44,580 nt of DNA, taken from IMG/VR virus record IMGVR_UViG_2534682161_000019; one strand, 5' to 3'. This stretch comes from a virus. Taxonomy: Duplodnaviria; Heunggongvirae; Uroviricota; Caudoviricetes. The notes below the pieces were generated by a model that was not told the origin of the DNA, searched no databases, and saw only the letters and a list, made by a program, of their open reading frames with translations. Both the position numbers and the translations under genes were made by a program. Shown here piece by piece: positions 6,943-44,580 of the stretch. Within the stretch, counting starts at the first letter, position 1. Every line of letters starts with the position of its first letter.

Positions 6943-7158
6943 TCAGTAGTTTTCAATCACTCGCGAAACGTTTAATGCCGCGCTTTTTGCCAGAGTGGTA
7001 ATATCCTGCTCCGCTGACACCAGTTCTTTAGAGAGGCGCTCTTTGTAGTCAGCGGCCTGCTTCAGGTCATTAATGGCGCGTATCTTTCCGCACATCCATT
7101 CGTAAATTTCATCCTCGGTATAGTCTGGTGCGATGATGACGGGTTCTCGTTTCTGCAT
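6943..7158 (-). CDS. hypothetical early protein
   Basis: 71-aa ORF in the leftward operon. Confidence 0.4.
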   Translation of the reverse strand: MQKREPVIIAPDYTEDEIYEWMCGKIRAINDLKQAADYKERLSKELVSAEQDITTLAKSAALNVSRVIENY

Positions 7159-7187
7159 ACTGATTCCTCGAGGTGCCGCTTCGCTTA

Positions 7188-7316
7188 TCAGTCGTTAGAT
7201 TTTGCCGAACTGGAAAGCGCCTGTTTAAACTCACTGAAGCTGAGAGCTTCTTCGCCTTCGGCAAGGCCTTCGAAGTATTCTTCGTAAGCCTTTTCCATGA
7301 TTGCGTCGAAATCCAT
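7188..7316 (-). CDS. hypothetical small acidic protein (42 aa)
   Basis: Not in the ORF track (under 60 aa); ATG at 7316 preceded by AGGTGAG RBS; MDFDAIMEKAYEEYFEGLAEGEEALSFSEFKQALSSSAKSND; fits tightly between flanking leftward genes. Confidence 0.35.
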   Translation of the reverse strand: MDFDAIMEKAYEEYFEGLAEGEEALSFSEFKQALSSSAKSND

Positions 7317-7317
7317 A

Positions 7318-7554
7318 TCACTCACCTGAATTTCTTTCCAGCCAGCGACGCGCGCCAGCTTCGGTTTTAAACGTTTTGCTTCTGGTATACGTCATCGCGG
7401 TGAACGTGCCGTCCTGGTTGGGAAACACGCCGTACACCAGAGATTCGTTGTTGCCAAGATCGATAGTATCCATGCTGACCTCATTTCCCCTTAACGCCGG
7501 GGTAGCGGAACAAAAACCTGCTGCATAGTTATTAAAGTTGAACCCTGCCGTCAT
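7318..7554 (-). CDS. hypothetical protein, first gene of the leftward early operon
   Basis: 78-aa ORF; an alternative start at 7473 (MDTIDLG...) has a GAGG RBS; not Arg-rich, so not an N-like antiterminator. Confidence 0.4.
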   Translation of the reverse strand: MTAGFNFNNYAAGFCSATPALRGNEVSMDTIDLGNNESLVYGVFPNQDGTFTAMTYTRSKTFKTEAGARRWLERNSGE

Positions 7555-7649
7555 GTTCTTACGCCTCGGGCTGGCTACTTAACCCCTGACCACTGCCGGG
7601 TAACTCTAGGTATTGCCCTGCGTTCTGTGGGGCGGGGTGGGTTGGCATG

Positions 7650-7700
7650 TATATAATGTACTTTATGTTCAGTGTTGTAAAGTACTTTGAGTACATTTTA
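7650..7700. promoter_or_regulatory. leftward early promoter/operator region (OL-like) with ATGTACT operator motifs
   Basis: ATGTACT at 7656-7662 (+) and 7690-7696 (-); 13-mer ATGTACTCAAAGT on the minus strand (7684-7696) is identical to one at 8240-8252. Confidence 0.45.
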
Positions 7701-7771
7701 TGTGTAAAAAAATGAGATGGGAAAAAGTGAAGCACAAACCCGGAGGGGGACGCTACCGGATTTATGCTGGT

Positions 7772-8191
7772 TTAAGAGGCTTTTTGTTTTTTCTTTCGTG
7801 CTAACTCTTCGTAAATTGCATTGTACTTTTGTTTTTTCTCCTCAAGAGTTTTTAAAAGTTCATCTGTCTCACTGTCAGGGAGCTCGTCCAGAAGATCAAT
7901 GATGATTTTTTGTCTTGGATTTAACTCCTGATAGAAACGTACCTGTCCACTTTCTTCTGTATCCTCTCCCAAAAGATAGGTTGGTGTTGTTCCAATGAGT
8001 GTTGCTAATTCCCTTAATTTCTCTCGGCGAGGAATTGTTTCGCCATTAAACCATTTGCTAACCGCTTTTGGTGTTAATTTCATTCGACGGGCAATTTCTG
8101 CCTGCCTTCCATGTTGTTCATAACCAGCGTTTTCACAGGCTAGCGCAAGCCTACTGGCGAACTCTTTACGCGCTTTATCTTCATGAACCAT
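7772..8191 (-). CDS. prophage repressor, HTH XRE family (RacR/DicA-like, no S24 peptidase domain)
   Basis: 139 aa; N-terminal HTH (...QAEIARRMKLTPKAVSKWFNGETIP...); acidic C-terminus; divergent from a Cro-like gene. Confidence 0.7.
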   Translation of the reverse strand: MVHEDKARKEFASRLALACENAGYEQHGRQAEIARRMKLTPKAVSKWFNGETIPRREKLRELATLIGTTPTYLLGEDTEESGQVRFYQELNPRQKIIIDLLDELPDSETDELLKTLEEKKQKYNAIYEELARKKKQKAS

Positions 8192-8199
8192 AAGTTCAA

Positions 8200-8260
8200 T
8201 GATATTCGCTCTTGAATGTACTGTCAGTTCTGTTATAGCATGTACTCAAAGTTCACATTG
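8200..8260. promoter_or_regulatory. divergent promoter/operator region between repressor and cro-like gene (OR-like)
   Basis: ATGTACT motifs at 8216-8222 and 8240-8246; shares 13-mer ATGTACTCAAAGT with the OL-like region. Confidence 0.5.
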
Positions 8261-8270
8261 TGAGGGTGAT

Positions 8271-8525
8271 ATGAACCAGAAAACACTTGAAGATGTAATC
8301 AAAACTGTTCGCGTTTCTGTTGTGGCCGACGTTTGTGGTGTCAGCCAAAGAGCAATCTACAAATGGATGGATAACGGAAAATTGCCTCGCACTGAATATA
8401 CCGGCGAAACAAATTATGCTGAAAAAATCGCTCATGCATCAAACGGATTATTTTCTGCCGATGCAATTTTAACTATTGGCAGAAATAAAACTACTACGAA
8501 AAAGCTGTTGGGAGTTGATTCATGA
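8271..8525 (+). CDS. Cro-like / YdaS-family small HTH regulator
   Basis: 84 aa from the ATG at 8271 (RBS GAGGGTGA); HTH-like VADVCGVSQRAIYKWMDNGKLP; divergent from the repressor. Confidence 0.6.
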   Translation: MNQKTLEDVIKTVRVSVVADVCGVSQRAIYKWMDNGKLPRTEYTGETNYAEKIAHASNGLFSADAILTIGRNKTTTKKLLGVDS

Positions 8526-8947
8526 AAATCAAGCATGAGCACATCCGCATGGCGATGAATGCCTGGTCGCATCCGGACGGCGAAAAAGTTCCGGCAGCTG
8601 AAATAACCCGGGCTTATTTTGAACTGGGTATGACGTTTCCGGAACTGTACGACGATTCACACCCAGAAGCCCTGGCTCGCAATACTCAGAAGATTTTCCG
8701 CTGGGTGGAGAAAGACACCCCTGATGCGGTTAAAAAAATTCAGGCGTTGTTACCAGCGATCGAAAAAGCAATGCCACCTCTGCTGGTGGCCCGAATGCGC
8801 AGCCACAGTTCAACCTGGTTTCGGGAGCTGGTGGAGACGCGGGAACGACTGGTGAGAGACGCTGATGATTTTGTCGCAGTGGCGATCGCTGGTTTCAATC
8901 AGATGAATCGTGGTGGTCCGGCGGGAAATGCCGTGGTGATGCACTAA
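8522..8947 (+). CDS. YdaT-like / CII-like early regulatory protein
   Basis: 141 aa directly after the cro-like gene (start overlaps its stop); same position and size as ydaT of Rac; assignment from recollection. Confidence 0.45.
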   Translation: MKIKHEHIRMAMNAWSHPDGEKVPAAEITRAYFELGMTFPELYDDSHPEALARNTQKIFRWVEKDTPDAVKKIQALLPAIEKAMPPLLVARMRSHSSTWFRELVETRERLVRDADDFVAVAIAGFNQMNRGGPAGNAVVMH

Positions 8948-8970
8948 AAGCACGGTGTTCGGAGTTTTTT

Positions 8971-9918
8971 ATGAGCAGCAAGCTTCATGGTCTTGTCTGG
9001 GAAGGGTGTGCCTTCACCGGCATGATCTTATCCAGGGTGGCAGTAATGGCTCGCCTTGCAGATTACAGCAATGACGAAGGTGTGTCATGGCCTGCAGTGG
9101 AGACCATTCGTCGTCAGATTGGGGCAAAGAGTGAATCAACGGTTAAAGCGGCGATAGCGGAACTGGAAAAGAACGGCTGGCTGACGAAGGAGGAACGTAA
9201 GGTCGGTGGGCGTAATGAAAGCAATATCTACCGTCTTAATGTGGAAAAACTCGAAGCAGCAGCAGCGGCGGCGCGTGAGGCATATAAACCGAAAAGAAAA
9301 ATTAACCCGGTAAAAAATGACCCGTCAAATATTGACCCCTCAACGGTTGACCCCTCAAATTTTGATGGATCAACCGTTGATAAAAAACATTCGGTTAGGG
9401 GGACGATGGTTGGCCCCGATCCGTCAGTATTAAAACCTGATCCGCCAGATAAAAGATCTTCTTGTCCGGACGCTTCGCAACCGGACCCGCAGATGGCTGA
9501 ACAGGATTTTTTAACCCGACACCCTGACGCGGTTGTGTTCAGTGCGAAAAAACGCCAGTGGGGCAGCCAGGAAGATTTAGCGTGTGCGCAGTGGATCTGG
9601 GGGCGAATCGTGAGTCTTTACGAGCAGGCTGCCAGCGATGATGGCGAAATCATGCGACCGAAAGAACCAAACTGGACTGCATGGGCCAATGATGTGCGCA
9701 CAATGCGGATGCTGGATGGCAGAACTCACAGACAAATTTGCGAAATGTTTGGTCGGGTACAGCGGGATCCATTCTGGGTAAAAAACATCATGAGTCCGGC
9801 AAAACTCCGGGAAAAATGGGATGAGCTGGTTATTCGTCTGGGGCGTTCGCCTGTACAGCGTTGCGTGAATCACATTTCTGAACCGGATACCGAAATTCCG
9901 CCGGGGTTCAGGGGGTAA
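8971..9918 (+). CDS. replication initiator protein (O-like; N-terminal winged HTH)
   Basis: 315 aa; N-terminal HTH (...VSWPAVETIRRQIGAKSESTVKAAIAELEKNGWL...); internal DPSNIDPSTVDPSNFDGSTVD tract encoded by iteron-like DNA repeats. Confidence 0.6.
   Translation: MSSKLHGLVWEGCAFTGMILSRVAVMARLADYSNDEGVSWPAVETIRRQIGAKSESTVKAAIAELEKNGWLTKEERKVGGRNESNIYRLNVEKLEAAAAAAREAYKPKRKINPVKNDPSNIDPSTVDPSNFDGSTVDKKHSVRGTMVGPDPSVLKPDPPDKRSSCPDASQPDPQMAEQDFLTRHPDAVVFSAKKRQWGSQEDLACAQWIWGRIVSLYEQAASDDGEIMRPKEPNWTAWANDVRTMRMLDGRTHRQICEMFGRVQRDPFWVKNIMSPAKLREKWDELVIRLGRSPVQRCVNHISEPDTEIPPGFRG
9313..9381. repeat. iteron-like direct/inverted repeats inside the replication gene (putative origin)
   Basis: Repeated TGACCC(C)TCAA units (aaaaatgacccgtcaaat / attgacccctcaacgg / ttgacccctcaaat / tttgatggatcaaccgttga) followed by an A-run. 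Confidence 0.45.
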
Positions 9919-9960
9919 GTGTTGATTTGAGGTCATGAAGTTATTTTCTCAGGAGAGTTT

Positions 9961-10362
9961 ATGGGGGCTATTTATACCGAAGAACAGCGGGAAAGATTAC
10001 AGCGTCACATCGTTGACCTTGTACGTAAAAACGGGCGTATGAAAATGCCACAACTGGCATCGGCAACATATGCTTCACATGATTCCATTCGCCGGTACCT
10101 GAAGATGCTGGTGAGCCAGGGCGAAGTGTATGTTGTCAGCGGAAAAGGGGTATTCCTTTCAGAGAGAGTTTACCGTGAATGGCTGGCAAGTTCGGCAAAA
10201 AAATCAAGGGTTATCCGCAAACCAGCACAAAAACAGGGTAAGGCCGGAGTACAACCCTACGACCGGCACCAGAACGTAATTTGCCGGGAATGTCGTAACA
10301 GCGAATCAATGCAGCGGGTACTGGCTTTTTACCGGGGTGGATTTCAGGAGCTCGTATCGTGA
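9961..10362 (+). CDS. hypothetical protein
   Basis: 133-aa ORF; ATG preceded by AGGAGAG. Confidence 0.45.
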   Translation: MGAIYTEEQRERLQRHIVDLVRKNGRMKMPQLASATYASHDSIRRYLKMLVSQGEVYVVSGKGVFLSERVYREWLASSAKKSRVIRKPAQKQGKAGVQPYDRHQNVICRECRNSESMQRVLAFYRGGFQELVS

Positions 10363-10667
10363 AAAAGTGGGTGCGTGCCGAGATACTGATTCTACGGCAG
10401 TGTGCGGGAACAATGACGGTGGAATGTATCGGGATGCTTATTGGTCGTAGTGAGGCTGCGGTCAGAACGAAAGCGCGGGAACTGGGTATTAGTATGATGT
10501 TACGGGGTGATTATCACCAGTCAGCAAAATATCCGCAGAGTGATATTGAGCTGGCGCGACAGCTGCATCAGCTTGGCGTGTCCAGGAGAGAAATCGCCAG
10601 AAAATTTGGAATGCCGCTGCGCACAGTGAATAACTACGTTTATTTCGACAGGAGGGTGTCTGCGTGA
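10359..10667 (+). CDS. hypothetical HTH-containing protein
   Basis: 102 aa with two HTH-like stretches (GRSEAAVRTKARELGIS and GVSRREIARKFGMPLRTV); start overlaps previous stop. Confidence 0.45.
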   Translation: MKKWVRAEILILRQCAGTMTVECIGMLIGRSEAAVRTKARELGISMMLRGDYHQSAKYPQSDIELARQLHQLGVSRREIARKFGMPLRTVNNYVYFDRRVSA

Positions 10668-10897
10668 AAATCCTGTATCAGGATTACGGCCCGGTGGGAC
10701 AGGTGGTTATCAGCAGTACTGTAATGGAGTTCCGGAAGCATAACCGTGTGGTGGATGCAGTACTGTTAGCCTGTCCGGGGATATCGGCGAGCCGTGCAGG
10801 TGTGTTTTTTATGAAGACGAAGTTATATGGCAGTACAGCGTGGATAAAGAAGGCGTACCGGGTAGCGTTACAGGAGGTAAACAGTGAGCGAAATTAA
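10664..10897 (+). CDS. hypothetical protein
   Basis: 77-aa ORF translationally coupled to its neighbours. Confidence 0.35.
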   Translation: MKILYQDYGPVGQVVISSTVMEFRKHNRVVDAVLLACPGISASRAGVFFMKTKLYGSTAWIKKAYRVALQEVNSERN

Positions 10898-11345
10898 CTG
10901 TCAGGCACTGCGAGAGGCGGCAGAGAAAGCAACTAAAGGAAGCTACATCGTAGGGCATACGTCTGTTAACCAGCATGGCAATTTAACAGGAGTTTTTGTT
11001 TGTCAAAAATGGAAAGGAGAACCCGGTGGCGTGATTGCAGAATGTCATGTTAACTGCCTGGTTGAAACAGATGCTCAGGCTTACGCAAACGCTGAATTTA
11101 TTGCTGCCTTTAATCCAAAGGTTGCGCTGGCGATACTGGATAAGCTGGAAGCTAAAGACAAGCGCATTGCAGAACTGGAGGCGAGGGAAATCCAGTTACC
11201 TGCTGGCTTCGACCTTCGATATGGACACCCGATAAATGCTGATGAGCGACATGTGATGATACCTAAAGAAAATGGCAACTGGATTCATCGGACTGACTTA
11301 GAGCACTCACTACGTGTTGCAGGGATTCGTATTAAAGGAGACTAA
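10884..11345 (+). CDS. Ead/Ea22-like protein
   Basis: 153 aa; resembles the Ead/Ea22-like family common in E. coli prophages (recollection only); coiled-coil-like middle. Confidence 0.4.
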   Translation: MSEINCQALREAAEKATKGSYIVGHTSVNQHGNLTGVFVCQKWKGEPGGVIAECHVNCLVETDAQAYANAEFIAAFNPKVALAILDKLEAKDKRIAELEAREIQLPAGFDLRYGHPINADERHVMIPKENGNWIHRTDLEHSLRVAGIRIKGD

Positions 11346-17137: not shown

Positions 17138-17961
17138 GTGTTTATGTGGATTGTGTTAGCACTGTCACTGTCAACTCTCAGTTGGCATAAGGTAGTGGCT
17201 TTTTCATTGTTGACGGTGTCTGTTGTCCTGGCTGTGCTTAATGATATTATTGATTGGCCGGTGTTGTTTTTTGTTGCTACAATCGTTTTTTTTATTATTT
17301 TGAAGTTCAACTGGAAATATAACGCCTGGGCTAAATCCATATATGAAGCTGGCATAGTTTTATCAGCCATAGCATTATCTTTCCATTTATGGCCAGGGTT
17401 TCACAATCCTGTAGTGCTAAAGTCTGTCACTGTCGGACCTCAAAGCACTCCCTATACAATGTATTTTAATTTTGATAAAGCGCTGGTGCCATTTTTGTTA
17501 GTCCTGTGTACAGCTTCTTTGTTTAAAAAAGAAGTGAAATCAGAAGTGTCTTTGTGGAAATGGGGGGCTCTGTTGCTCTCTGTTCCTCTTATACTGTTTT
17601 TGGCTGTTTTTTTGGTGGGTTAAAGCCAGAGATTCATTTTCCAGAGTGGTTGCCAGAGTTTATATTGGCTAATTTGTTTTTTGTGTCTCTGGCAGAGGAG
17701 TCATTATTTAGAGGGTATATTCAATCACGGCTATCAGAAGTGACGTCTCCATTGGTTGCGTTAATTGTGGCGTCTTTGTTGTTTGGTTTTTATCACTATT
17801 CAGGTGGTGCTTTACTTGTATTATTTGCCACGTTATCTGGTGTTGTGTATGGATTGTCATGGATGTGGAGTGGGTGCTTGTGGGTGGCAACCCTTTTCCA
17901 TTTTGGTCTGAATCTGTGTCACTTGTTATTCTTTACCTATCCATTCTTAAAACATAATTGA
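17138..17961 (+). CDS. CPBP-family intramembrane metalloprotease (CAAX protease/Abi domain), disrupted by a frameshift in a T7 run
   Basis: ORFs 17138-17623 and 17554-17961 overlap in different frames; second part carries CPBP motifs EESLFRGY, FGFYHY, HFGLN; adding one T to the T7 run at 17607-17613 restores a single ~275-aa multi-TM protein; AT-rich. Confidence 0.65.
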
Positions 17962-18102
17962 TTTTTTTCTATGGCTTTAAATTTATAACACTGAAAAATA
18001 GCAGTATGTGACATTTGCATGAAAAATATGCACGGCAAAGCATTTACGTACGTAAAAAATCATGTATGCTTTTAAGAGTGGTTATTTCACCGCATAGCCT
18101 GA

Positions 18103-18126
18103 ACCCGCCTCTGAGCGGGTTTTTTG
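18103..18126 (+). terminator. rho-independent terminator after the CPBP gene
   Basis: ACCCGC-CTCTGA-GCGGGT hairpin followed by TTTTTTG. Confidence 0.55.
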
Positions 18127-18248
18127 TGCCCGCAAAGTAGCGCAGTGCGTTAAATGTGCTGGTAGTTATTAATACTGGTCTTTCTGCTTGCTGGCTTTTT
18201 AGACAAGAGTTATTGGTATGTCACGTTAACCAGAAAAGGGAAAAAGAC

Positions 18249-18446
18249 ATGCTAAAACAGCAGGATATGACCGAAACCGCCAGAGTGGTGTTTAATGAAT
18301 TAAGCGTCACCGAACCGGCGACCGTCGGGGAGATTGCGCAGAATACTTACCTTTCACGCGAGCGCTGCCAGTTAATACTGACTCAGCTTGTTATGGCGGG
18401 TCTGGCAGATTATCAGTTCGGTTGTTACAGACGCCTTCCGCAGTGA
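18249..18446 (+). CDS. hypothetical small winged-helix-like protein upstream of the methyltransferase
   Basis: 65 aa from the ATG at 18249 (AAGGGA RBS); ...VGEIAQNTYLSRERCQLILTQLVMAGL... resembles a DNA-binding wHTH. Confidence 0.45.
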   Translation: MLKQQDMTETARVVFNELSVTEPATVGEIAQNTYLSRERCQLILTQLVMAGLADYQFGCYRRLPQ

Positions 18447-18596
18447 AGGCTTTTTAATTTGTGGTAATGGGCGGCTGGTGGGTGTTAGCGGCACCTGCCA
18501 GCCATCTGCTCATGCGTTGGGGTCACAAGCAAACCTCAGGCCCATCTGCTTTGCGCAAAAGCGGTATGAGCCTATCAGAGAAGTGCTTATTGATCT

Positions 18597-19146
18597 ATGG
18601 CTAATACTGTAAAAATATCCAGCTGCGAGTTAATCAACGCTGATTTCCTGGAATTTATCCAGACCTTACCGGAAAACTCTGTCGATCTGATAGTCACAGA
18701 CCCGCCATACTTTAAAGTGAAGCCCGAGGGCTGGGATAACCAGTGGAAGGGCGACGATGATTACCTGAAATGGCTGGATCAGTGTCTGGCGCAGTTCTGG
18801 TGGGTATTAAAACCCGCCGGAAGTCTTTACCTGTTCTGTGGTCATCGCCTGGCATCTGATATCGAAATCATGATGCGTGAGCGCTTTAATGTGCTGAACC
18901 ACATTATCTGGGCGAAGCCGTCCGGGCGCTGGAACGGGTGCAACAAGGAAAGCCTGCGGGCGTATTTCCCGGCAACAGAGCGCATTCTGTTTGCGTCCGG
19001 GAGATTTGGTTGCCGACTTTTTCATGGGGTCAGGCTCCATAATAAAAGCAGCGCTGGCACTTGGGGGCATGGCGTTAAGCGTTGAACTTGAGTCTGAACG
19101 TTTTGAGCATACTGCGGGTGAAATAGTTACGTTGGCAGATAATTAA
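18597..19146 (+). CDS. DNA methyltransferase (N6-adenine/N4-cytosine type, DPPY motif), apparently frameshifted or internally deleted
   Basis: N-terminal frame contains TDPPYF; the SAM-binding motif (PGDLVADFFMGSGS...ALALGG...) is in a different frame ending at 19146; the combined length is short for this family. Confidence 0.55.
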
Positions 19147-19260
19147 ATCACTGCACAATAAGCTAATGAATTGATGTTAACTTCCCGTATTATTGGGCTA
19201 CTTCGAGAGAAAGGTGCATTACATTTCAGATGTATTTCATCTCACATCCGAGGAAGCAAT

Positions 19261-19336
<76 letters not shown>

Positions 19337-19339
19337 TAT

Positions 19340-19414
<75 letters not shown>

Positions 19415-19546
19415 ACATTTGATAGAGGCGTATTGCAGCACTGGCGTATTTTTATTACGTGAGGACAGATTGTTTTTTTAGGAACTCTCAGTTTTCGGGC
19501 TATGTTTTGAGGCCAGGTTAGCCTCAGTGCTGATTTTTTACAATAC

Positions 19547-19615
19547 CGGAATGGTGCATTATTGGTTGGGTTACGTAGTGAGCCCTATGGCAGGTACCGG
19601 TGATGCACCATTCCG
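19547..19615. other. long imperfect hairpin (13-bp stem, ~43-nt loop) downstream of the tRNAs
   Basis: CGGAATGGTGCAT (19547-19559) pairs with ATGCACCATTCCG (19603-19615). Confidence 0.4.
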
Positions 19616-19694
19616 ATGTTGTAAACATCACTTAGAGTAAGTTATAGAACAATTTGCTACTAAGTAAAACCTGAAACCTGGGAATACATCTTTA

Positions 19695-19718
19695 CCGCCA
19701 CACTTGGCGGTTTTTTTT
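19695..19718 (+). terminator. rho-independent terminator (possible tR-prime-like late terminator)
   Basis: CCGCCA-CACT-TGGCGG hairpin followed by TTTTTTTT. Confidence 0.6.
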
Positions 19719-19816
19719 ATTCTGTTTTTTCATGGCTCGCTACGGCGGCCTTTTTCATGTATACCCTGGCGGTTATTATGATGGCTTGTTTATTTGTTCA
19801 TAAGAGGATTGATACA

Positions 19817-20299
19817 GTGGTCACTTATGCTGATATCAGGGCAAAACGGGCCGAAATACTGAAAGCTAAGCAGGAATACATTCAGCGGTTGCGGGATACA
19901 GCCACAAGGCTGGTCAATGCCTATGAGTCTTCACTGGCGTTGCCGGAACTGCAATGGCGAGACATTGAGGGTGAGTTACATCCTTACGTCTATATTTGCT
20001 TCAATGGCTTCAGTGTCCGACCGGAGGATTTGCAGGTAGACCTTAGGGACGGAGTTGCGTTTAAATTATACACAGTTGTTGATGACAATCCCCGCCAGTC
20101 TGCAAGTATGGAAGTTGGTGTAAAGATTGTGCTGCTTGATGGCGATAACCTGACGATTTCAGTTAATGGTTATGGGGACAGAACATTTTCGCACGTAGAT
20201 ACCGATGCAAAAATTAACGAGGTATGCGAGTTCATCAAAGACAGTATTTTAATGTCGATGAATGATGTGAATTTGGCAAAGCATCTCTGCCGAAGATAG
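19817..20299 (+). CDS. hypothetical protein (moron at the position stx occupies in Stx phages)
   Basis: ORF track 19757-20299; GTG at 19817 lies 9 nt after an AAGAGG RBS; no recognised motif. Confidence 0.4.
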   Translation: MVTYADIRAKRAEILKAKQEYIQRLRDTATRLVNAYESSLALPELQWRDIEGELHPYVYICFNGFSVRPEDLQVDLRDGVAFKLYTVVDDNPRQSASMEVGVKIVLLDGDNLTISVNGYGDRTFSHVDTDAKINEVCEFIKDSILMSMNDVNLAKHLCRR

Positions 20300-20509: not shown

Positions 20510-20935
20510 ATGTTTGGTATTTTCAAAAAGAAAACACGCAAGGCCATTACCGAAGTGAAGAAGATGGAGAACCGCGACGCAGTGGAGGCGACCGTCTGGG
20601 GTGCGTATTCCATTGCATACGCTGACGACACCTGTGACTCGAAAGAAATCGCGGTACTGGAGAAAACCATTGCAGCACTTCCTGCCTTTGCGCCGTTCTC
20701 CGGTGAGATTGCACAAATGAGTGCAAATATCCGCGCCCGTTATGAAGCGTCGCCGCGCTCTGCCAATGCTGAAGCCCTTCGCCAGCTGGCTGATGTCGCC
20801 GGTACTGATGACGCAGTGAATGTGCTGTGCCTGTGTCTGGATATTGCAGACCAGGATGGCATTGGGCCGGAGGAAGAAGTACAGCTCAAGAAAATTGCTC
20901 AGGCGCTTCAGTTACCGCTGGAGCAGTACCTGTGA
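20510..20935 (+). CDS. TerB-like (tellurite-resistance TerB domain) protein
   Basis: 141 aa; layout ...AYSIAYADDTCDSKEIAVLE... and ...DIADQDGIGPEEEVQLKKIAQALQL... resembles the two TerB repeat units (ADG..S.EE / SDG.FDDDEK...IA..LG). Confidence 0.5.
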   Translation: MFGIFKKKTRKAITEVKKMENRDAVEATVWGAYSIAYADDTCDSKEIAVLEKTIAALPAFAPFSGEIAQMSANIRARYEASPRSANAEALRQLADVAGTDDAVNVLCLCLDIADQDGIGPEEEVQLKKIAQALQLPLEQYL

Positions 20936-21084
20936 AAAGTGCGCGCCTTGTACTGGCTGCCATCCTGCTGTTTCTGGTAGTGGTGGTGGATTTTACCGGA
21001 CGGCTGATGTCGGTACTGGCAGATGGTGTGCTGGTGGTGATGGTGTTGGTCGTGCTCCGGCCTTTACTGCGCAAATCTGAATAA
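20932..21084 (+). CDS. hypothetical small hydrophobic peptide overlapping the TerB-like stop
   Basis: GTG at 20932 overlaps the TGA of the upstream gene (GTGA); 50-aa product VKSARLVLAAILLFLVVVVDFTGRLMSVLADGVLVVMVLVVLRPLLRKSE. Confidence 0.3.
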   Translation: MKSARLVLAAILLFLVVVVDFTGRLMSVLADGVLVVMVLVVLRPLLRKSE

Positions 21085-21195: not shown

Positions 21196-21411
21196 ATGAA
21201 ATCCATGGACAAAATTTCAACGGGCATTGCCTATGGCACCTCCGCAGGCAGTGCTGGCTACTGGTTTTTACAGTGGCTTGATCAGGTCAGTCCGTCACAG
21301 TGGGCTGCGATTGGTGTATTAGGGAGTCTGGTTCTGGGCTTCCTGACTTATCTGACAAATCTGTACTTCAAAATAAGAGAAGACAGAAGAAAGGCTGCGA
21401 GAGGTGAATAA
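21196..21411 (+). CDS. S: pinholin S21-type holin with dual-start motif (antiholin/holin)
   Basis: 71 aa [71 protein letters not shown]; matches phage 21 S21 as I recall it; Met1 and Met4 give the two starts. Confidence 0.85.
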
Positions 21412-21908
21412 TGCCTCCATCATTACGAAAAGCCGTTGCTGCTGCTATTGGTGGCGGGGCTATTGCTATAGCATCTGTGTTAATCACTGGTCCAGGTGGT
21501 AACGATGGTCTGGAAGGTGTCAGTTACATACCATACAAAGATATTGTTGGTGTATGGACTGTATGCCACGGACACACCGGAAAAGACATCATGCTCGGTA
21601 AAACGTATACCGAAGCAGAATGCAAAGCCCTCCTGAATAAAGACCTTTCCACGGTCGCCAGACAAATTACCCCGTACATCAAAGTCGATATACCAGAAAC
21701 AACGCGCGGCGCTCTTTACTCATTCGTCTATAACGTGGGTGCTGGAAATTTCAGAACATCGACTCTTCTTCGCAAAATAAACCAGGGTGATATCAAAGGC
21801 GCATGTGATCAGCTACGGCGCTGGACATACGCTGGCGGTAAGCAATGGAAAGGGCTGATGACCCGTCGTGATATTGAGCGTGAAGTCTGTTTGTGGGGGC
21901 AGCAATGA
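21411..21908 (+). CDS. R: SAR endolysin (phage 21 R-type lysozyme, T4-lysozyme fold)
   Basis: 165 aa; N-terminal signal-anchor-release domain ([23 protein letters not shown]) then catalytic ...[26 protein letters not shown]... Confidence 0.85.
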
Positions 21909-41902: not shown

Positions 41903-43993
41903 ATGGCAGTAAAGATTTCAGGTGTCCTGAAGGACGGAGCGGGTGAGCCTGTCGTAAACTGTGCGATTGAATTGCGAGCCAGAAGAACCAGTCCGACAGT
42001 TGTGGTTAATATTGTGGCAACCTGTCTTACGGGAAGTGATGGCGGGTATACTATTAATGCTGAGCCGGGATTTTATGATGTATTTTTGTCCCGCTCAGGG
42101 CATCCTCCTGTAAAGGCGGGGGAAATTTATGTTGCACCGACAGATGAGCCGGATACGCTGAATGCTTTTCTGGATGCACCAAAGGAGGGTGATTTACGCC
42201 CTGAGGTAATGAAGCGTTTTGAGGAAATGGTAAATACCGTTGTTCGCTTGTCTGAGCAGGTGGTCAGTGACAGGGAGAGAGCAGAAACAGCTGCTGATGA
42301 TGCAATCAATGCAGCAACATCTGCGGCGGTTAGTAAGGATGAGGCAGAAGAGCTAAAAAATCAGACACAGCAGAGCGCCGAAGCTGCAGCCGGAAACGCA
42401 CAGCAGACGGCACAGGATGTGACGACAACCGCAACGGCCCGTGATGATGCGGAACGTTTTGCGGGTGAGGCTGAAAACAGCGCACAGACATCAGGCACAG
42501 CGCGGGACGAATCAGTCGATGCCGCCGAACGTGCCCGCCTTTATCATAATACCGCATCATCAGCAGCGACCAGTTCAGAACTGTCGGCAAATGCTGCGCT
42601 GGGGCACAAAAACAGTGCCGCCGAATACGCCCGACAGGCTAAAGCCAGCCAGGATGCAGGTGCAGACAATGCGCAGGAAGCGAAACAGTACAGGGATGAG
42701 GCGCAGCAGATAGTTGATGACCTGAATGCAACAAATGCCAGCACGACAGAAAAAGGTCTGGTGCAACTCTGTAGTTATACGGACAACGACAGCGAGGAAC
42801 TGGCTGCCACGCCAAAGGCTGTCAAAGCCGTCATGGACGAAACGAAAACAAAAGCGCCACTGGACAGCCCGGCCTTCACCGGCACCCCAACCACCCCAAC
42901 CCCACCGGATGATGCCGCCGGTCTGGAAGCAGCGAACGCAGCGTTTGTGCGCAAACTGCTTGCTGCGCTGGTTGGCTCATCACCGGAAGTTCTGGACACC
43001 CTGAACGAGCTGGCAGCGGCGCTGGGCAATGACCCGAACTTTGCGACGACAATCACAAACGCGCTGGCAGGCAAACAACCGCTTAATGACGTCTTAACGG
43101 CAATCAGCGCACTGACGCAACGGGCAGATAATCTTCTGTACTTCAATACAGACGGGAATGCCTCACTGTCTCTGCTGTCAGAGAAGGGCCGCGCATTGCT
43201 GGCGCATGACACGGCTGAAGCCATGCGCACGGAGCTTGAGCTGAGCGCGGCTGCGACGATGGAACCCCAGAGTGATATCCGTGACCGCACACCGGGCAGG
43301 CTGGCCCTGTCCGGGATGTATGGGTTTGGACAGGCATTCACCAGCGCCGAAGCTCTGTCATTTAACGGACAGGCTGATTTCGTTATATGGCTGCAGACAG
43401 TCACCCCGGGGCGTTATGCGGTCAGTATTGCGGACTCCTCCACGCTGCTGGTGGGCACCACGAAATTTAACGGTATCATTGATGTGATGTGGTCACCGTC
43501 TGATAACGATGGTTCAGACTCAGCGCGTAAATTCAAAACGCTGCTGTACTACAACCAGTATTACGAGGATGAGCACAGCATACATTGTATGCGTTATCGC
43601 TACAGTGGTAACAGCTGGAATGCAACATCAAGCCTTATTGTGTATGACGGCAACTCCCTGGCATATCTGATGTCCTCAACCGCCGGTAATGGTCCGTTCT
43701 CATATTACCAATACCCGGCCGTCGGTGTGCCGATTATGGCGGTATATCAGGGAGAAAGTTTTGGTGAAAATGCTTCTCTGGGACTCGGTGATACTGTGCC
43801 GGGTTCCCGTCTTGGTCCTCTGGCCATGAGTGCACAGGTTAGTGATACAGGGACATACGCATCCTCACCGCAGGTTGTGATTGGCGGTGCCGGTGAATAC
43901 AACTTCCCCGGTCGTTACACGGCGCTTTCGGGCCTGGGTAACAATTATGGTACTCAGCGTGGCTTTATCGGTCTTTTTGTACGCATTGAGTAA
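41903..43993 (+). CDS. stf: side tail fibre protein Stf-like (lambda-like N-terminus, divergent C-terminal distal domain)
   Basis: N-terminus MAVKISGVLKDG.G.PV.NC.I.L.ARR.S.TVVVN... and central ...ATPKAVKAVMDETKTKAPLDSPAFTGTPT.PT...NELAAALGNDPNFATTITNALAGKQP... match lambda Stf; the C-terminal ~250 aa differ. Confidence 0.85.
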   Translation: MAVKISGVLKDGAGEPVVNCAIELRARRTSPTVVVNIVATCLTGSDGGYTINAEPGFYDVFLSRSGHPPVKAGEIYVAPTDEPDTLNAFLDAPKEGDLRPEVMKRFEEMVNTVVRLSEQVVSDRERAETAADDAINAATSAAVSKDEAEELKNQTQQSAEAAAGNAQQTAQDVTTTATARDDAERFAGEAENSAQTSGTARDESVDAAERARLYHNTASSAATSSELSANAALGHKNSAAEYARQAKASQDAGADNAQEAKQYRDEAQQIVDDLNATNASTTEKGLVQLCSYTDNDSEELAATPKAVKAVMDETKTKAPLDSPAFTGTPTTPTPPDDAAGLEAANAAFVRKLLAALVGSSPEVLDTLNELAAALGNDPNFATTITNALAGKQPLNDVLTAISALTQRADNLLYFNTDGNASLSLLSEKGRALLAHDTAEAMRTELELSAAATMEPQSDIRDRTPGRLALSGMYGFGQAFTSAEALSFNGQADFVIWLQTVTPGRYAVSIADSSTLLVGTTKFNGIIDVMWSPSDNDGSDSARKFKTLLYYNQYYEDEHSIHCMRYRYSGNSWNATSSLIVYDGNSLAYLMSSTAGNGPFSYYQYPAVGVPIMAVYQGESFGENASLGLGDTVPGSRLGPLAMSAQVSDTGTYASSPQVVIGGAGEYNFPGRYTALSGLGNNYGTQRGFIGLFVRIE

Positions 43994-44007: not shown

Positions 44008-44580
44008 ATGAAAATCAGAGCGGTGAAAGGTATCAGAAACGCACATTATCTTGAAAATGGTGCGGTTGACTGCGAGGTGTTATTTGAAGGTGAAACGGAG
44101 TTCGCCCTGTATACTGCCATACAGGATGATATGGCCCCGACAGGCCAGCATGTCTGGCAGGAGCTGCAAAGCGGGAAATGGGGCGAAATCGCCCCGTTCA
44201 CTGTCACGCCGGAACTTATTGCAGCGGCAAAGGATGCCAAAAGGCGGGAAATTGAGGCATGGCGCGACAGTCAGGAAAACGTTGAGTTTATTTTCACGTT
44301 TGATGGCCGTCGTTTTGATGGCGGAAAAACCTCGCAGTCACGCCTTGCCCCCGTGGTTGCAGCAGCACAGGCCGGACTGCTTCCGGATGGTTTTTTCTGG
44401 ACTGATGCGGATAATAACAACGTCGTACTGACCAGGGAGAAACTTATTGCGCTGAACGATGCCATGATGGTGGCCATGGTGGCGGAGGGATTTAAAATCC
44501 ACGAACGCCAGCGGGAGATGAAGGAACAACTGAATAATCTGGATGACTTGGCTTCAATTCGAGCGTTTGGCATTTGCTAA
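44008..44580 (+). CDS. putative tail fibre assembly/chaperone-like protein (non-canonical)
   Basis: ATG at 44008 7 nt after GAGGA (track begins at 43993); ~190 aa ending at a TAA at the window edge; downstream of stf where tfa normally sits, but it does not resemble lambda Tfa as I recall it. Confidence 0.35.
   Translation: MKIRAVKGIRNAHYLENGAVDCEVLFEGETEFALYTAIQDDMAPTGQHVWQELQSGKWGEIAPFTVTPELIAAAKDAKRREIEAWRDSQENVEFIFTFDGRRFDGGKTSQSRLAPVVAAAQAGLLPDGFFWTDADNNNVVLTREKLIALNDAMMVAMVAEGFKIHERQREMKEQLNNLDDLASIRAFGIC

Follow-up and report, generated by a model that had tools for sequence, protein, structure and literature searches.

A putative replication origin embedded in the initiator gene of an Escherichia coli lambdoid prophage

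The question raised by this locus is whether a cluster of short repeats within a phage replication initiator gene marks the origin from which the surrounding prophage replicates. The locus lies in IMG/VR virus record IMGVR_UViG_2534682161_000019 (Caudoviricetes), and “the window” means the whole stretch of 44,580 nucleotides that was analyzed. The prophage is an Escherichia coli lambdoid element, near-complete over the window, and the chromosome of E. coli strain N96 carries its initiator gene with 100% identity. An origin embedded in an initiator gene is a textbook principle; what is new here is an initiator family for which our literature searches found no published origin. Our analysis indicates that the repeats are very probably iterons that bind the initiator encoded by their own gene and that, with a conserved element downstream, they form the prophage replication origin. 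A prophage origin had been proposed at this place in a first-pass annotation, and that proposal gained support from the initiator family, the placement of the repeats in DNA encoding an interdomain linker, their conservation as DNA, and their covariation with the N-terminal domain, because placement, selection, and N-terminal tracking all fit lambda-style iterons. The gene in question is the following.

8971-9918, plus strand: replication initiator gene, an open reading frame of 315 residues matching PHROG 391 and Pfam HTH_36.

The array consists of four 12-bp palindromic units, TTGA-N4-TCAA, at an exact spacing of 15 bp (9317-9373). Three units are direct and one is inverted and degenerate, orientation being read from the central CCCC or GGGG. 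A decayed fifth unit follows.

9317-9328, plus strand: iteron 1, ATGACCCGTCAA, direct, 10/12 to the consensus.
9332-9343, plus strand: iteron 2, TTGACCCCTCAA, direct, 12/12.
9347-9358, plus strand: iteron 3, TTGACCCCTCAA, direct, 12/12.
9362-9373, minus strand: iteron 4, TTGATGGATCAA, inverted, 10/12 to TTGAGGGGTCAA, with a GATC inside.
9395-9406, minus strand: decayed fifth unit, TTAGGGGGACGA, inverted, 33 bp after unit 4, 8/12 match (counted by hand).

In Erwinia and Edwardsiella relatives, TTAAGGGGTCAA stands 33 bp past the last regularly spaced inverted unit, and TTAGGGGGACGA is its decayed counterpart. The first-pass annotation had placed repeats in direct and inverted orientation at 9313-9381 and had given their translation as DPSNIDPSTVDPSNFDGSTVD. 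The repeats are present there, unit 4 is the inverted copy, and the translation is correct. The repeat-finder check that it suggested was also borne out. Tandem Repeats Finder reported periods of 15 bp (3.2 copies, 9318-9365) and 30 bp (9318-9380), and a repeat search returned the direct family GACCCGTCA, GACCCCTCA, and GACCCCTCA at 15-bp spacing as well as a 20-nucleotide inverted repeat (arms 9340-9359 and 9361-9380, 90% complementary). The A-rich stretch said to follow the repeats amounts only to A6 at 9382-9387, and the extent given covers the repeats but falls short of the element, which reaches over roughly 9282-9486. A hairpin at 9340-9380 (z about -2.5) was rejected as an independent feature, being a by-product of neighboring direct and inverted units.

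The total number of motif matches in the 44.6-kb window is unremarkable (5 vs. 3.1 expected), and outside the array the motif is not above chance and forms no other cluster in the window. Four sites within 60 bp are a different matter: none of 300 first-order Markov simulations exceeded a cluster of two, and the analytic expectation is about 4e-8.

Conservation across the family indicates that these sites are kept for their DNA sequence. Homologues were taken from phage records (SfIV, mEp460, and Klebsiella phages), from IMG/VR, and from one genome per species, giving 62 genes after de-duplication. They come from Escherichia, Shigella, Klebsiella, Erwinia, Mixta, Edwardsiella, Yersinia, Proteus, Providencia, Serratia, Gilliamella, and others, and the pairwise identity of their N-terminal domains goes down to 44%. 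A linker array with a 15-nucleotide period is kept in all 62, with 3 to more than 10 units. E. coli relatives have alleles of 948 and 963 nucleotides, which are exactly one unit apart (4 vs. 5 units). Arrays in Edwardsiella and Providencia reach about 10 units, and Edwardsiella has a 45-bp super-repeat of direct-direct-inverted units.

In a codon test, units were defined at the protein level, and codon choice within them was then compared with the rest of the same genes. The results were as follows.

Serine codon TCA: 75% in units, 26% elsewhere.
Serine codons AGY: 0.7% in units, 37% elsewhere.
Aspartate codon GAC: 77% in units, 40% elsewhere.
T as third base of the preceding codon: 81% in units, 25% elsewhere.
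A as first base of the following codon: 70% in units, 27% elsewhere.

The final T of the preceding codon is independent of the encoded amino acid, which varies. At columns of a codon alignment with conserved amino acids, pairwise codon identity was 0.85 in the linker (residues 111-172, 9301-9486), 0.40 in the N-terminal domain, and 0.36 after the linker; across the 62 genes the linker differed from its flanks with a Mann-Whitney p = 5e-12, although such p-values overstate independence because the sequences share descent. In the subfamily nearest to the window (Erwinia, Mixta, Edwardsiella, and Kosakonia), direct and inverted units alternate at 15 bp. The direct TTGACCCCTCAA encodes the peptide IDPSN and the inverted TTGAGGGGTCAA encodes VEGST, so the DNA motif is constant while the peptide changes. 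Two copies in another reading frame (peptides SGGQN and LRGQN) also retain the DNA motif. Taken together, these sequence patterns indicate that the array is under selection as DNA rather than as peptide. There is no overlapping open reading frame of at least 40 residues between 9140 and 9576, so this is not the cause of the synonymous constraint. No promoter- or terminator-like sites were found in 8900-10000, and no relevant Rfam families in 7000-11000.

The type of repeat also follows one part of the protein. Among IMG/VR loci with a C-terminal domain 96-99% identical to that of the window, 46 have the window-type N-terminus and 33 have the mEp460-type N-terminus. The mEp460 type has five 23-bp repeats of unrelated sequence and then its own A-rich tract, and sequence common to both types picks up again at about 9449. 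A mosaic joint lies at about 9449-9465; the part downstream of it is 88.7% nucleotide-identical to mEp460-type initiators, while the N-terminal domain and the repeats are unrelated to theirs. The 15-bp array is retained in relatives with other C-terminal domains and other downstream genes. Because repeat type tracks the N-terminal and not the C-terminal domain, this covariation assigns the repeats to the N-terminal DNA-binding module. Cognate initiator-iteron pairs in lambdoid phages have been argued for lambda, P22, and L (PMC8022706).

The initiator itself matches PHROG 391 (“replication initiation O-like”) with an E-value of 1e-113. In a Pfam scan of the protein, HTH_36 (residues 25-71) was the sole match; Phage_rep_O and Rep_3 were not matched. 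An AlphaFold2 model was built with an alignment of 42 homologues (the single-sequence model, with a predicted local distance difference test (pLDDT) score of 43.5, was unusable). It shows a winged-helix domain at residues 1-105, a disordered linker at residues 109-171, a helical C-terminal domain at residues 173-294, and a disordered tail. The three main parts are as follows.

8971-9285, plus strand: N-terminal winged-helix DNA-binding domain, residues 1-105, AlphaFold2 pLDDT 73-88.
9301-9486, no strand: linker, predicted disordered, residues 109-171, pLDDT 29-42, with synonymous sites nearly frozen.
9487-9852, plus strand: C-terminal domain, homologue of the lambda O C-terminal domain (BLASTP E 1e-25), pLDDT 60-89.

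All units lie where the gene encodes the disordered linker between the winged-helix and lambda-O-like domains. The modeled N-terminal domain has the layout helix-helix-helix-helix-beta-hairpin, and its Foldseek matches are PadR, MarR, and ArsR winged-helix dimers (probability 1.00); a sequence search of solved structures with this domain gave weak winged-helix matches only. Since the units have dyad symmetry and the N-terminal fold resembles that of dimeric winged-helix regulators, binding as a dimer is plausible. By BLASTP, residues 177-288 of the initiator align with residues 171-270 of lambda O (40% identity over 112 columns, E 1e-25), and the N-terminal part is left unaligned. A comparison by hhalign of a 33-sequence N-terminal profile with the lambda O N-terminus gave a probability of 0.1%, with no detectable similarity. 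An initiator of the iteron-plasmid Rep_3 or RepA type was considered and rejected, as Rep_3 is not matched and the repeats are inside the gene.

An origin of this kind would include a stretch in which the duplex opens, and two stretches beside the array are A+T-rich.

9282-9321, no strand: A+T-rich tract (72% A+T) just before the array; no 40-mer of the gene is less stable, and it ranks at the 98th percentile of the window.
9410-9469, no strand: A-rich element, conserved, holding three GATC sites; a candidate region for unwinding or for secondary binding.

The second of these contains, in order, the half iteron TTGGCCCC, then GATCCGTCAG, TATTAAAACCT, GATCCGCCAG, and ATAAAAGATCTTCTTGTCCGG. It is kept as DNA in 57/57 anchored homologues, the most distant included, and it is conserved more strongly than the iterons themselves. 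Its core, GGATCCGTCAG, has 85-100% conservation per position in these homologues, and its family consensus contains GGGGATCCGTCAGTAAA. Across the family, A+T content is 62-63% in the element vs. 49% for the gene mean, and GATC occurs 1-3 times in 66 nucleotides vs. 0.23 expected. The window has four GATC sites in 91 bp (9368-9458) vs. about 0.26 expected. In the element, both aspartate codons are GAT without exception, in contrast to the units, where most are GAC. A-tract positions showed no obvious 10.5-bp phasing by eye. We consider the element the best candidate for a counterpart of the lambda AT-rich region. Two iteron-like sites within it, GATCCGTCAG (9418-9427) and GATCCGCCAG (9439-9448), are 21 bp apart, and the element possibly holds two weaker initiator sites about 21-24 bp apart. 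A gene for a Dam-type methylase directly follows the initiator in many relatives; the conserved GATC element and a phage Dam gene may point to methylation-sensitive initiation. A perfect DnaA box, TTTTCCACA, is present on the minus strand at 9240-9248, about 70 bp upstream of the array. It was rejected as part of the origin and is probably fortuitous: DnaA boxes in the window are at chance (82 vs. 80), and a perfect box occurs in the equivalent stretch of only 1/57 relatives.

A working model can be put forward from these parts. Upon prophage induction, transcription from the early rightward promoter would produce the initiator. Its winged-helix dimers would bind at units 1-4, and perhaps also at the weaker GATCC(G/A)TCAG sites. 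The nucleoprotein complex so formed would stress the duplex and lead to opening in a flanking A+T-rich stretch, for which the best candidate is 9424-9463 in the GATC element and the alternative is 9282-9321. The C-terminal domain and a DnaT-like tail would then bring in host DnaB-DnaC.

Several points weigh against the array being an origin. A spacing of 15 bp sets adjacent sites on nearly opposite faces of the helix, compared to about 20-24 bp in lambda, so a wrapped O-some like that of lambda should not be taken for granted. The 40-mers that flank the array are modest, at 65-72% A+T, and the tract at 9282-9321 is present in the window-type subfamily and absent from SfIV-type relatives, so that no single stretch stands out clearly as the unwinding site. 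Because one unit is degenerate, another is decayed, and IS66 insertions interrupt the prophage, present-day origin activity is uncertain. Our literature searches returned no paper on the origin of this initiator family and none with binding or replication experiments on it. The shared descent of the sequences in the codon test belongs on the same side.

An alternative is that the sites bind the initiator for control, through autoregulation, titration, or handcuffing, with opening and replisome assembly taking place elsewhere in the prophage. Iteron arrays in plasmids have control roles. Handcuffing in particular has been described (PMC5397158). A control function would also fit the lack of a strongly A+T-rich region adjoining the array and the phasing of 15 bp, which is unlike lambda. 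However, the array has the same placement, within the same arrangement of modules, as the proven origin of lambda. It is also coupled to an A-rich element with GATC sites that is universally conserved, and the window has no second cluster of the motif. A mid-gene site about 1.1 kb from the expected early promoter is also poorly placed for promoter control. We consider a purely regulatory array unlikely.

The array could instead serve as a joint for recombination between modules, or as the target of another protein (a host factor, the DUF977 protein encoded next to the initiator, or a further helix-turn-helix protein). A module boundary does lie at about 9449-9465, the clustered GATC sites point to recognition by Dam or SeqA, and winged-helix proteins are encoded just downstream. 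Yet the array travels with the N-terminal domain and not with the downstream genes. SfIV and Klebsiella phages have no DUF977 gene and retain the array, while the mEp460 type has a gene at the DUF977 position (“LygF”) yet different repeats. Nor would 3-10 phased palindromes be required at a recombination joint. Explanations of this second kind appear quite improbable. Weakest of all, and largely refuted already by the sequence comparisons, is the view that the array is a slippage product without DNA function in a low-complexity linker (pentapeptide D-P-S-x-x), which would suit a linker that is predicted to be disordered and that changes copy number by whole 5-residue units, but which fails to explain why synonymous positions are frozen only in the linker, why the bases flanking the core are conserved despite differing encoded amino acids, and why the DNA motif survives in inverted and frame-shifted copies whose peptides differ.

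The closest model for an origin at this place is lambda ori. As in the window, it is placed mid-gene within the initiator, where the linker joining the DNA-binding N-terminal domain to the C-terminal domain is encoded, and it has several repeats with internal dyad symmetry and an A-rich stretch to their right (PMC7466680). The C-terminal domains of the two initiators are homologous, and both genes follow a cII-like gene. The N-terminal domains differ (HTH_36 here, Phage_rep_O in lambda), and so do the repeats, which are 12-bp units of mixed orientation at 15-bp spacing here and 18-bp iterons 20-24 bp apart in lambda. The window also has a weaker A+T-rich region, no P gene downstream, and a DnaT-like protein end. 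Because no relationship can be detected between the N-terminal domains of this initiator and lambda O, this is not the same origin as ori-lambda; by sequence, the putative window origin is an analogue of ori-lambda and not a strict member of the lambda O/ori-lambda family.

Other lambdoid phages provide further comparisons. Gene 18 of P22 and gene 18 of phage L encode distantly related lambdoid ori-binding proteins and have their own repeats in the coding region (PMC8022706). In phage L these are six imprecise 11-bp copies, and its origin was inferred from sequence alone (PMC8022706), which is the same type of reasoning as used here for the window. P22 and L differ from the window in repeat sequence and initiator N-terminal domain, and a DnaB-type helicase (gene 12) adjoins the initiator there and not here. 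Phage lambda has 4 iterons and Shiga toxin (Stx) phages have 6, and each extra unit adds residues to the initiator linker (PMC7466680). Variation by whole units is thus common to Stx phage origins and the present family; Stx phages, however, have true lambda-O-type initiators with lambda iterons, for which binding and replication were examined by experiment.

Repeated initiator sites are also used outside lambdoid phages. P1 oriR, from a Dam-sensitive iteron plasmid, and oriC both have repeated initiator sites beside an A-rich stretch with clustered GATC. The window repeats likewise adjoin an A-rich, GATC-clustered stretch, which is conserved family-wide. Unlike these two origins, the window origin would lie inside the initiator coding sequence, with no Rep_3 initiator and no conserved DnaA box. 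The oriJ/YdaU system of the Rac prophage was considered as a known counterpart and set aside; YdaU belongs to a different family (DUF1376) and is followed by a DnaC-like gene. Plasmid records were also screened for signs that the initiator supports autonomous replication. The matches are mostly prophages in large records, and one is a 44-kb circular phage genome. One further record, NZ_CP148542.1, is a 15,977-bp circular “plasmid” made up solely of the immunity, replication, Q, and lysis regions of a lambdoid prophage. Its initiator reads as frameshifted (possibly a sequencing error) and is followed by a DnaC-like gene; the record may represent a circle of the lambda-dv kind or an artefact of assembly.

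The end of the initiator bears on how the replicative helicase might be loaded.

9856-9915, plus strand: C-terminal tail, DnaT-like, ending in SEPDTEIPPGFRG and predicted to be disordered.

This tail is identical to residues 160-179 of E. coli DnaT at 14/20 positions (70%), and the two share the ending IPPGFRG. Outside the last 20 residues, the initiator has no similarity to DnaT. Some phage records label relatives as DnaT. The possibility that the initiator is a full DnaT was rejected, as only these 20 residues align, and the NCBIfam DnaT model, which covers only its positions 160-179 in the initiator, scores 16 bits vs. a cut-off of 201. The two proteins differ in role as well, DnaT being a replication-restart factor and the window protein a putative origin-binding initiator. 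Among the annotated genes after the initiator, there is no lambda P, DnaC, or DnaB gene. In relatives with a lambda-O-like C-terminal ending, a lambda P homologue lies downstream (PF06992, E 4e-59 and 1e-53). Relatives with the DnaT-like motif have either no loader gene or a DnaC-like AAA+ gene downstream, and the combination of a DnaT-like ending with a DnaC-like gene mirrors the host dnaT-dnaC operon. Reviews describe the way in which DnaT recruits DnaB-DnaC as unknown (PMC4132743, PMC5778457), and our literature searches on DnaT tail function and on “initiator-solo” modules found nothing specific. Because the ending type correlates with the downstream loader gene among relatives, loader-less lambdoid replicons may capture host DnaB-DnaC through the DnaT-matching peptide SEPDxxIPPGFRG. 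The same peptide would then be the element by which DnaT itself recruits DnaB-DnaC. Taken as one proposal together with methylation-sensitive initiation through the GATC element, these ideas are tentative, and we think it somewhat doubtful that they hold jointly.

Along the prophage, the genes run from integrase, exonuclease, and dicB through the immunity region to replication, Q, and lysis, and then to head and tail, with IS66 insertions. Upstream of the initiator are a DicA-like repressor gene (7772-8191, minus strand), a cro-like gene, and a YdaT/CII-like gene (8522-8947), and because these precede it, the initiator occupies the position of lambda gene O. The early promoter would be expected in the divergent repressor/cro region, and the array lies about 1.1 kb downstream of that region. 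The gene 3' of the initiator (9961-10362), at the ren/P position of lambda, encodes a DUF977 winged-helix protein that PHROGs label “Ren-like exclusion protein.” Further genes after it encode other DNA-binding proteins, including winged-helix proteins. In mEp460-type phages, the 402-nucleotide gene “LygF” is at the DUF977 position. In the annotation of E. coli N96, the initiator is named only “helix-turn-helix domain-containing protein.”

IS66-family elements interrupt the prophage at about 17662-20250 and 44017-44580 of the window. The first is between the Q region and the lysis genes, beside a truncated DNA-methyltransferase pseudogene (20682-21080), and the second is at the tail end, with a truncated lom-like gene (43331-43927) next to it. 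Given these interruptions, the prophage may not be fully functional. Two tRNA genes, for Thr and Gly, are annotated at about 21346-21499, also between the Q region and the lysis genes.

The replication module to which this initiator belongs is very common. Of 5426 complete E. coli genomes, 3053 have a megablast match to the initiator gene, many of these matches being partial, and a protein search for the initiator returned 923 clusters. Relatives are also found in SfII, SfIV, phiP27, and Klebsiella and Yersinia phages. If the origin proposed here is correct, it would locate the origin of a very common and unstudied replication module. It would aid in annotating prophages, in interpreting peaks of read depth after induction, and in designing phage-derived replicons. 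It would also caution against synonymous recoding of the linker. The locus would also be a clean case of a DNA-level function overriding coding constraints within a disordered linker, and the DnaT-like tail would offer a testable handle on the recruitment of DnaB-DnaC by DnaT.

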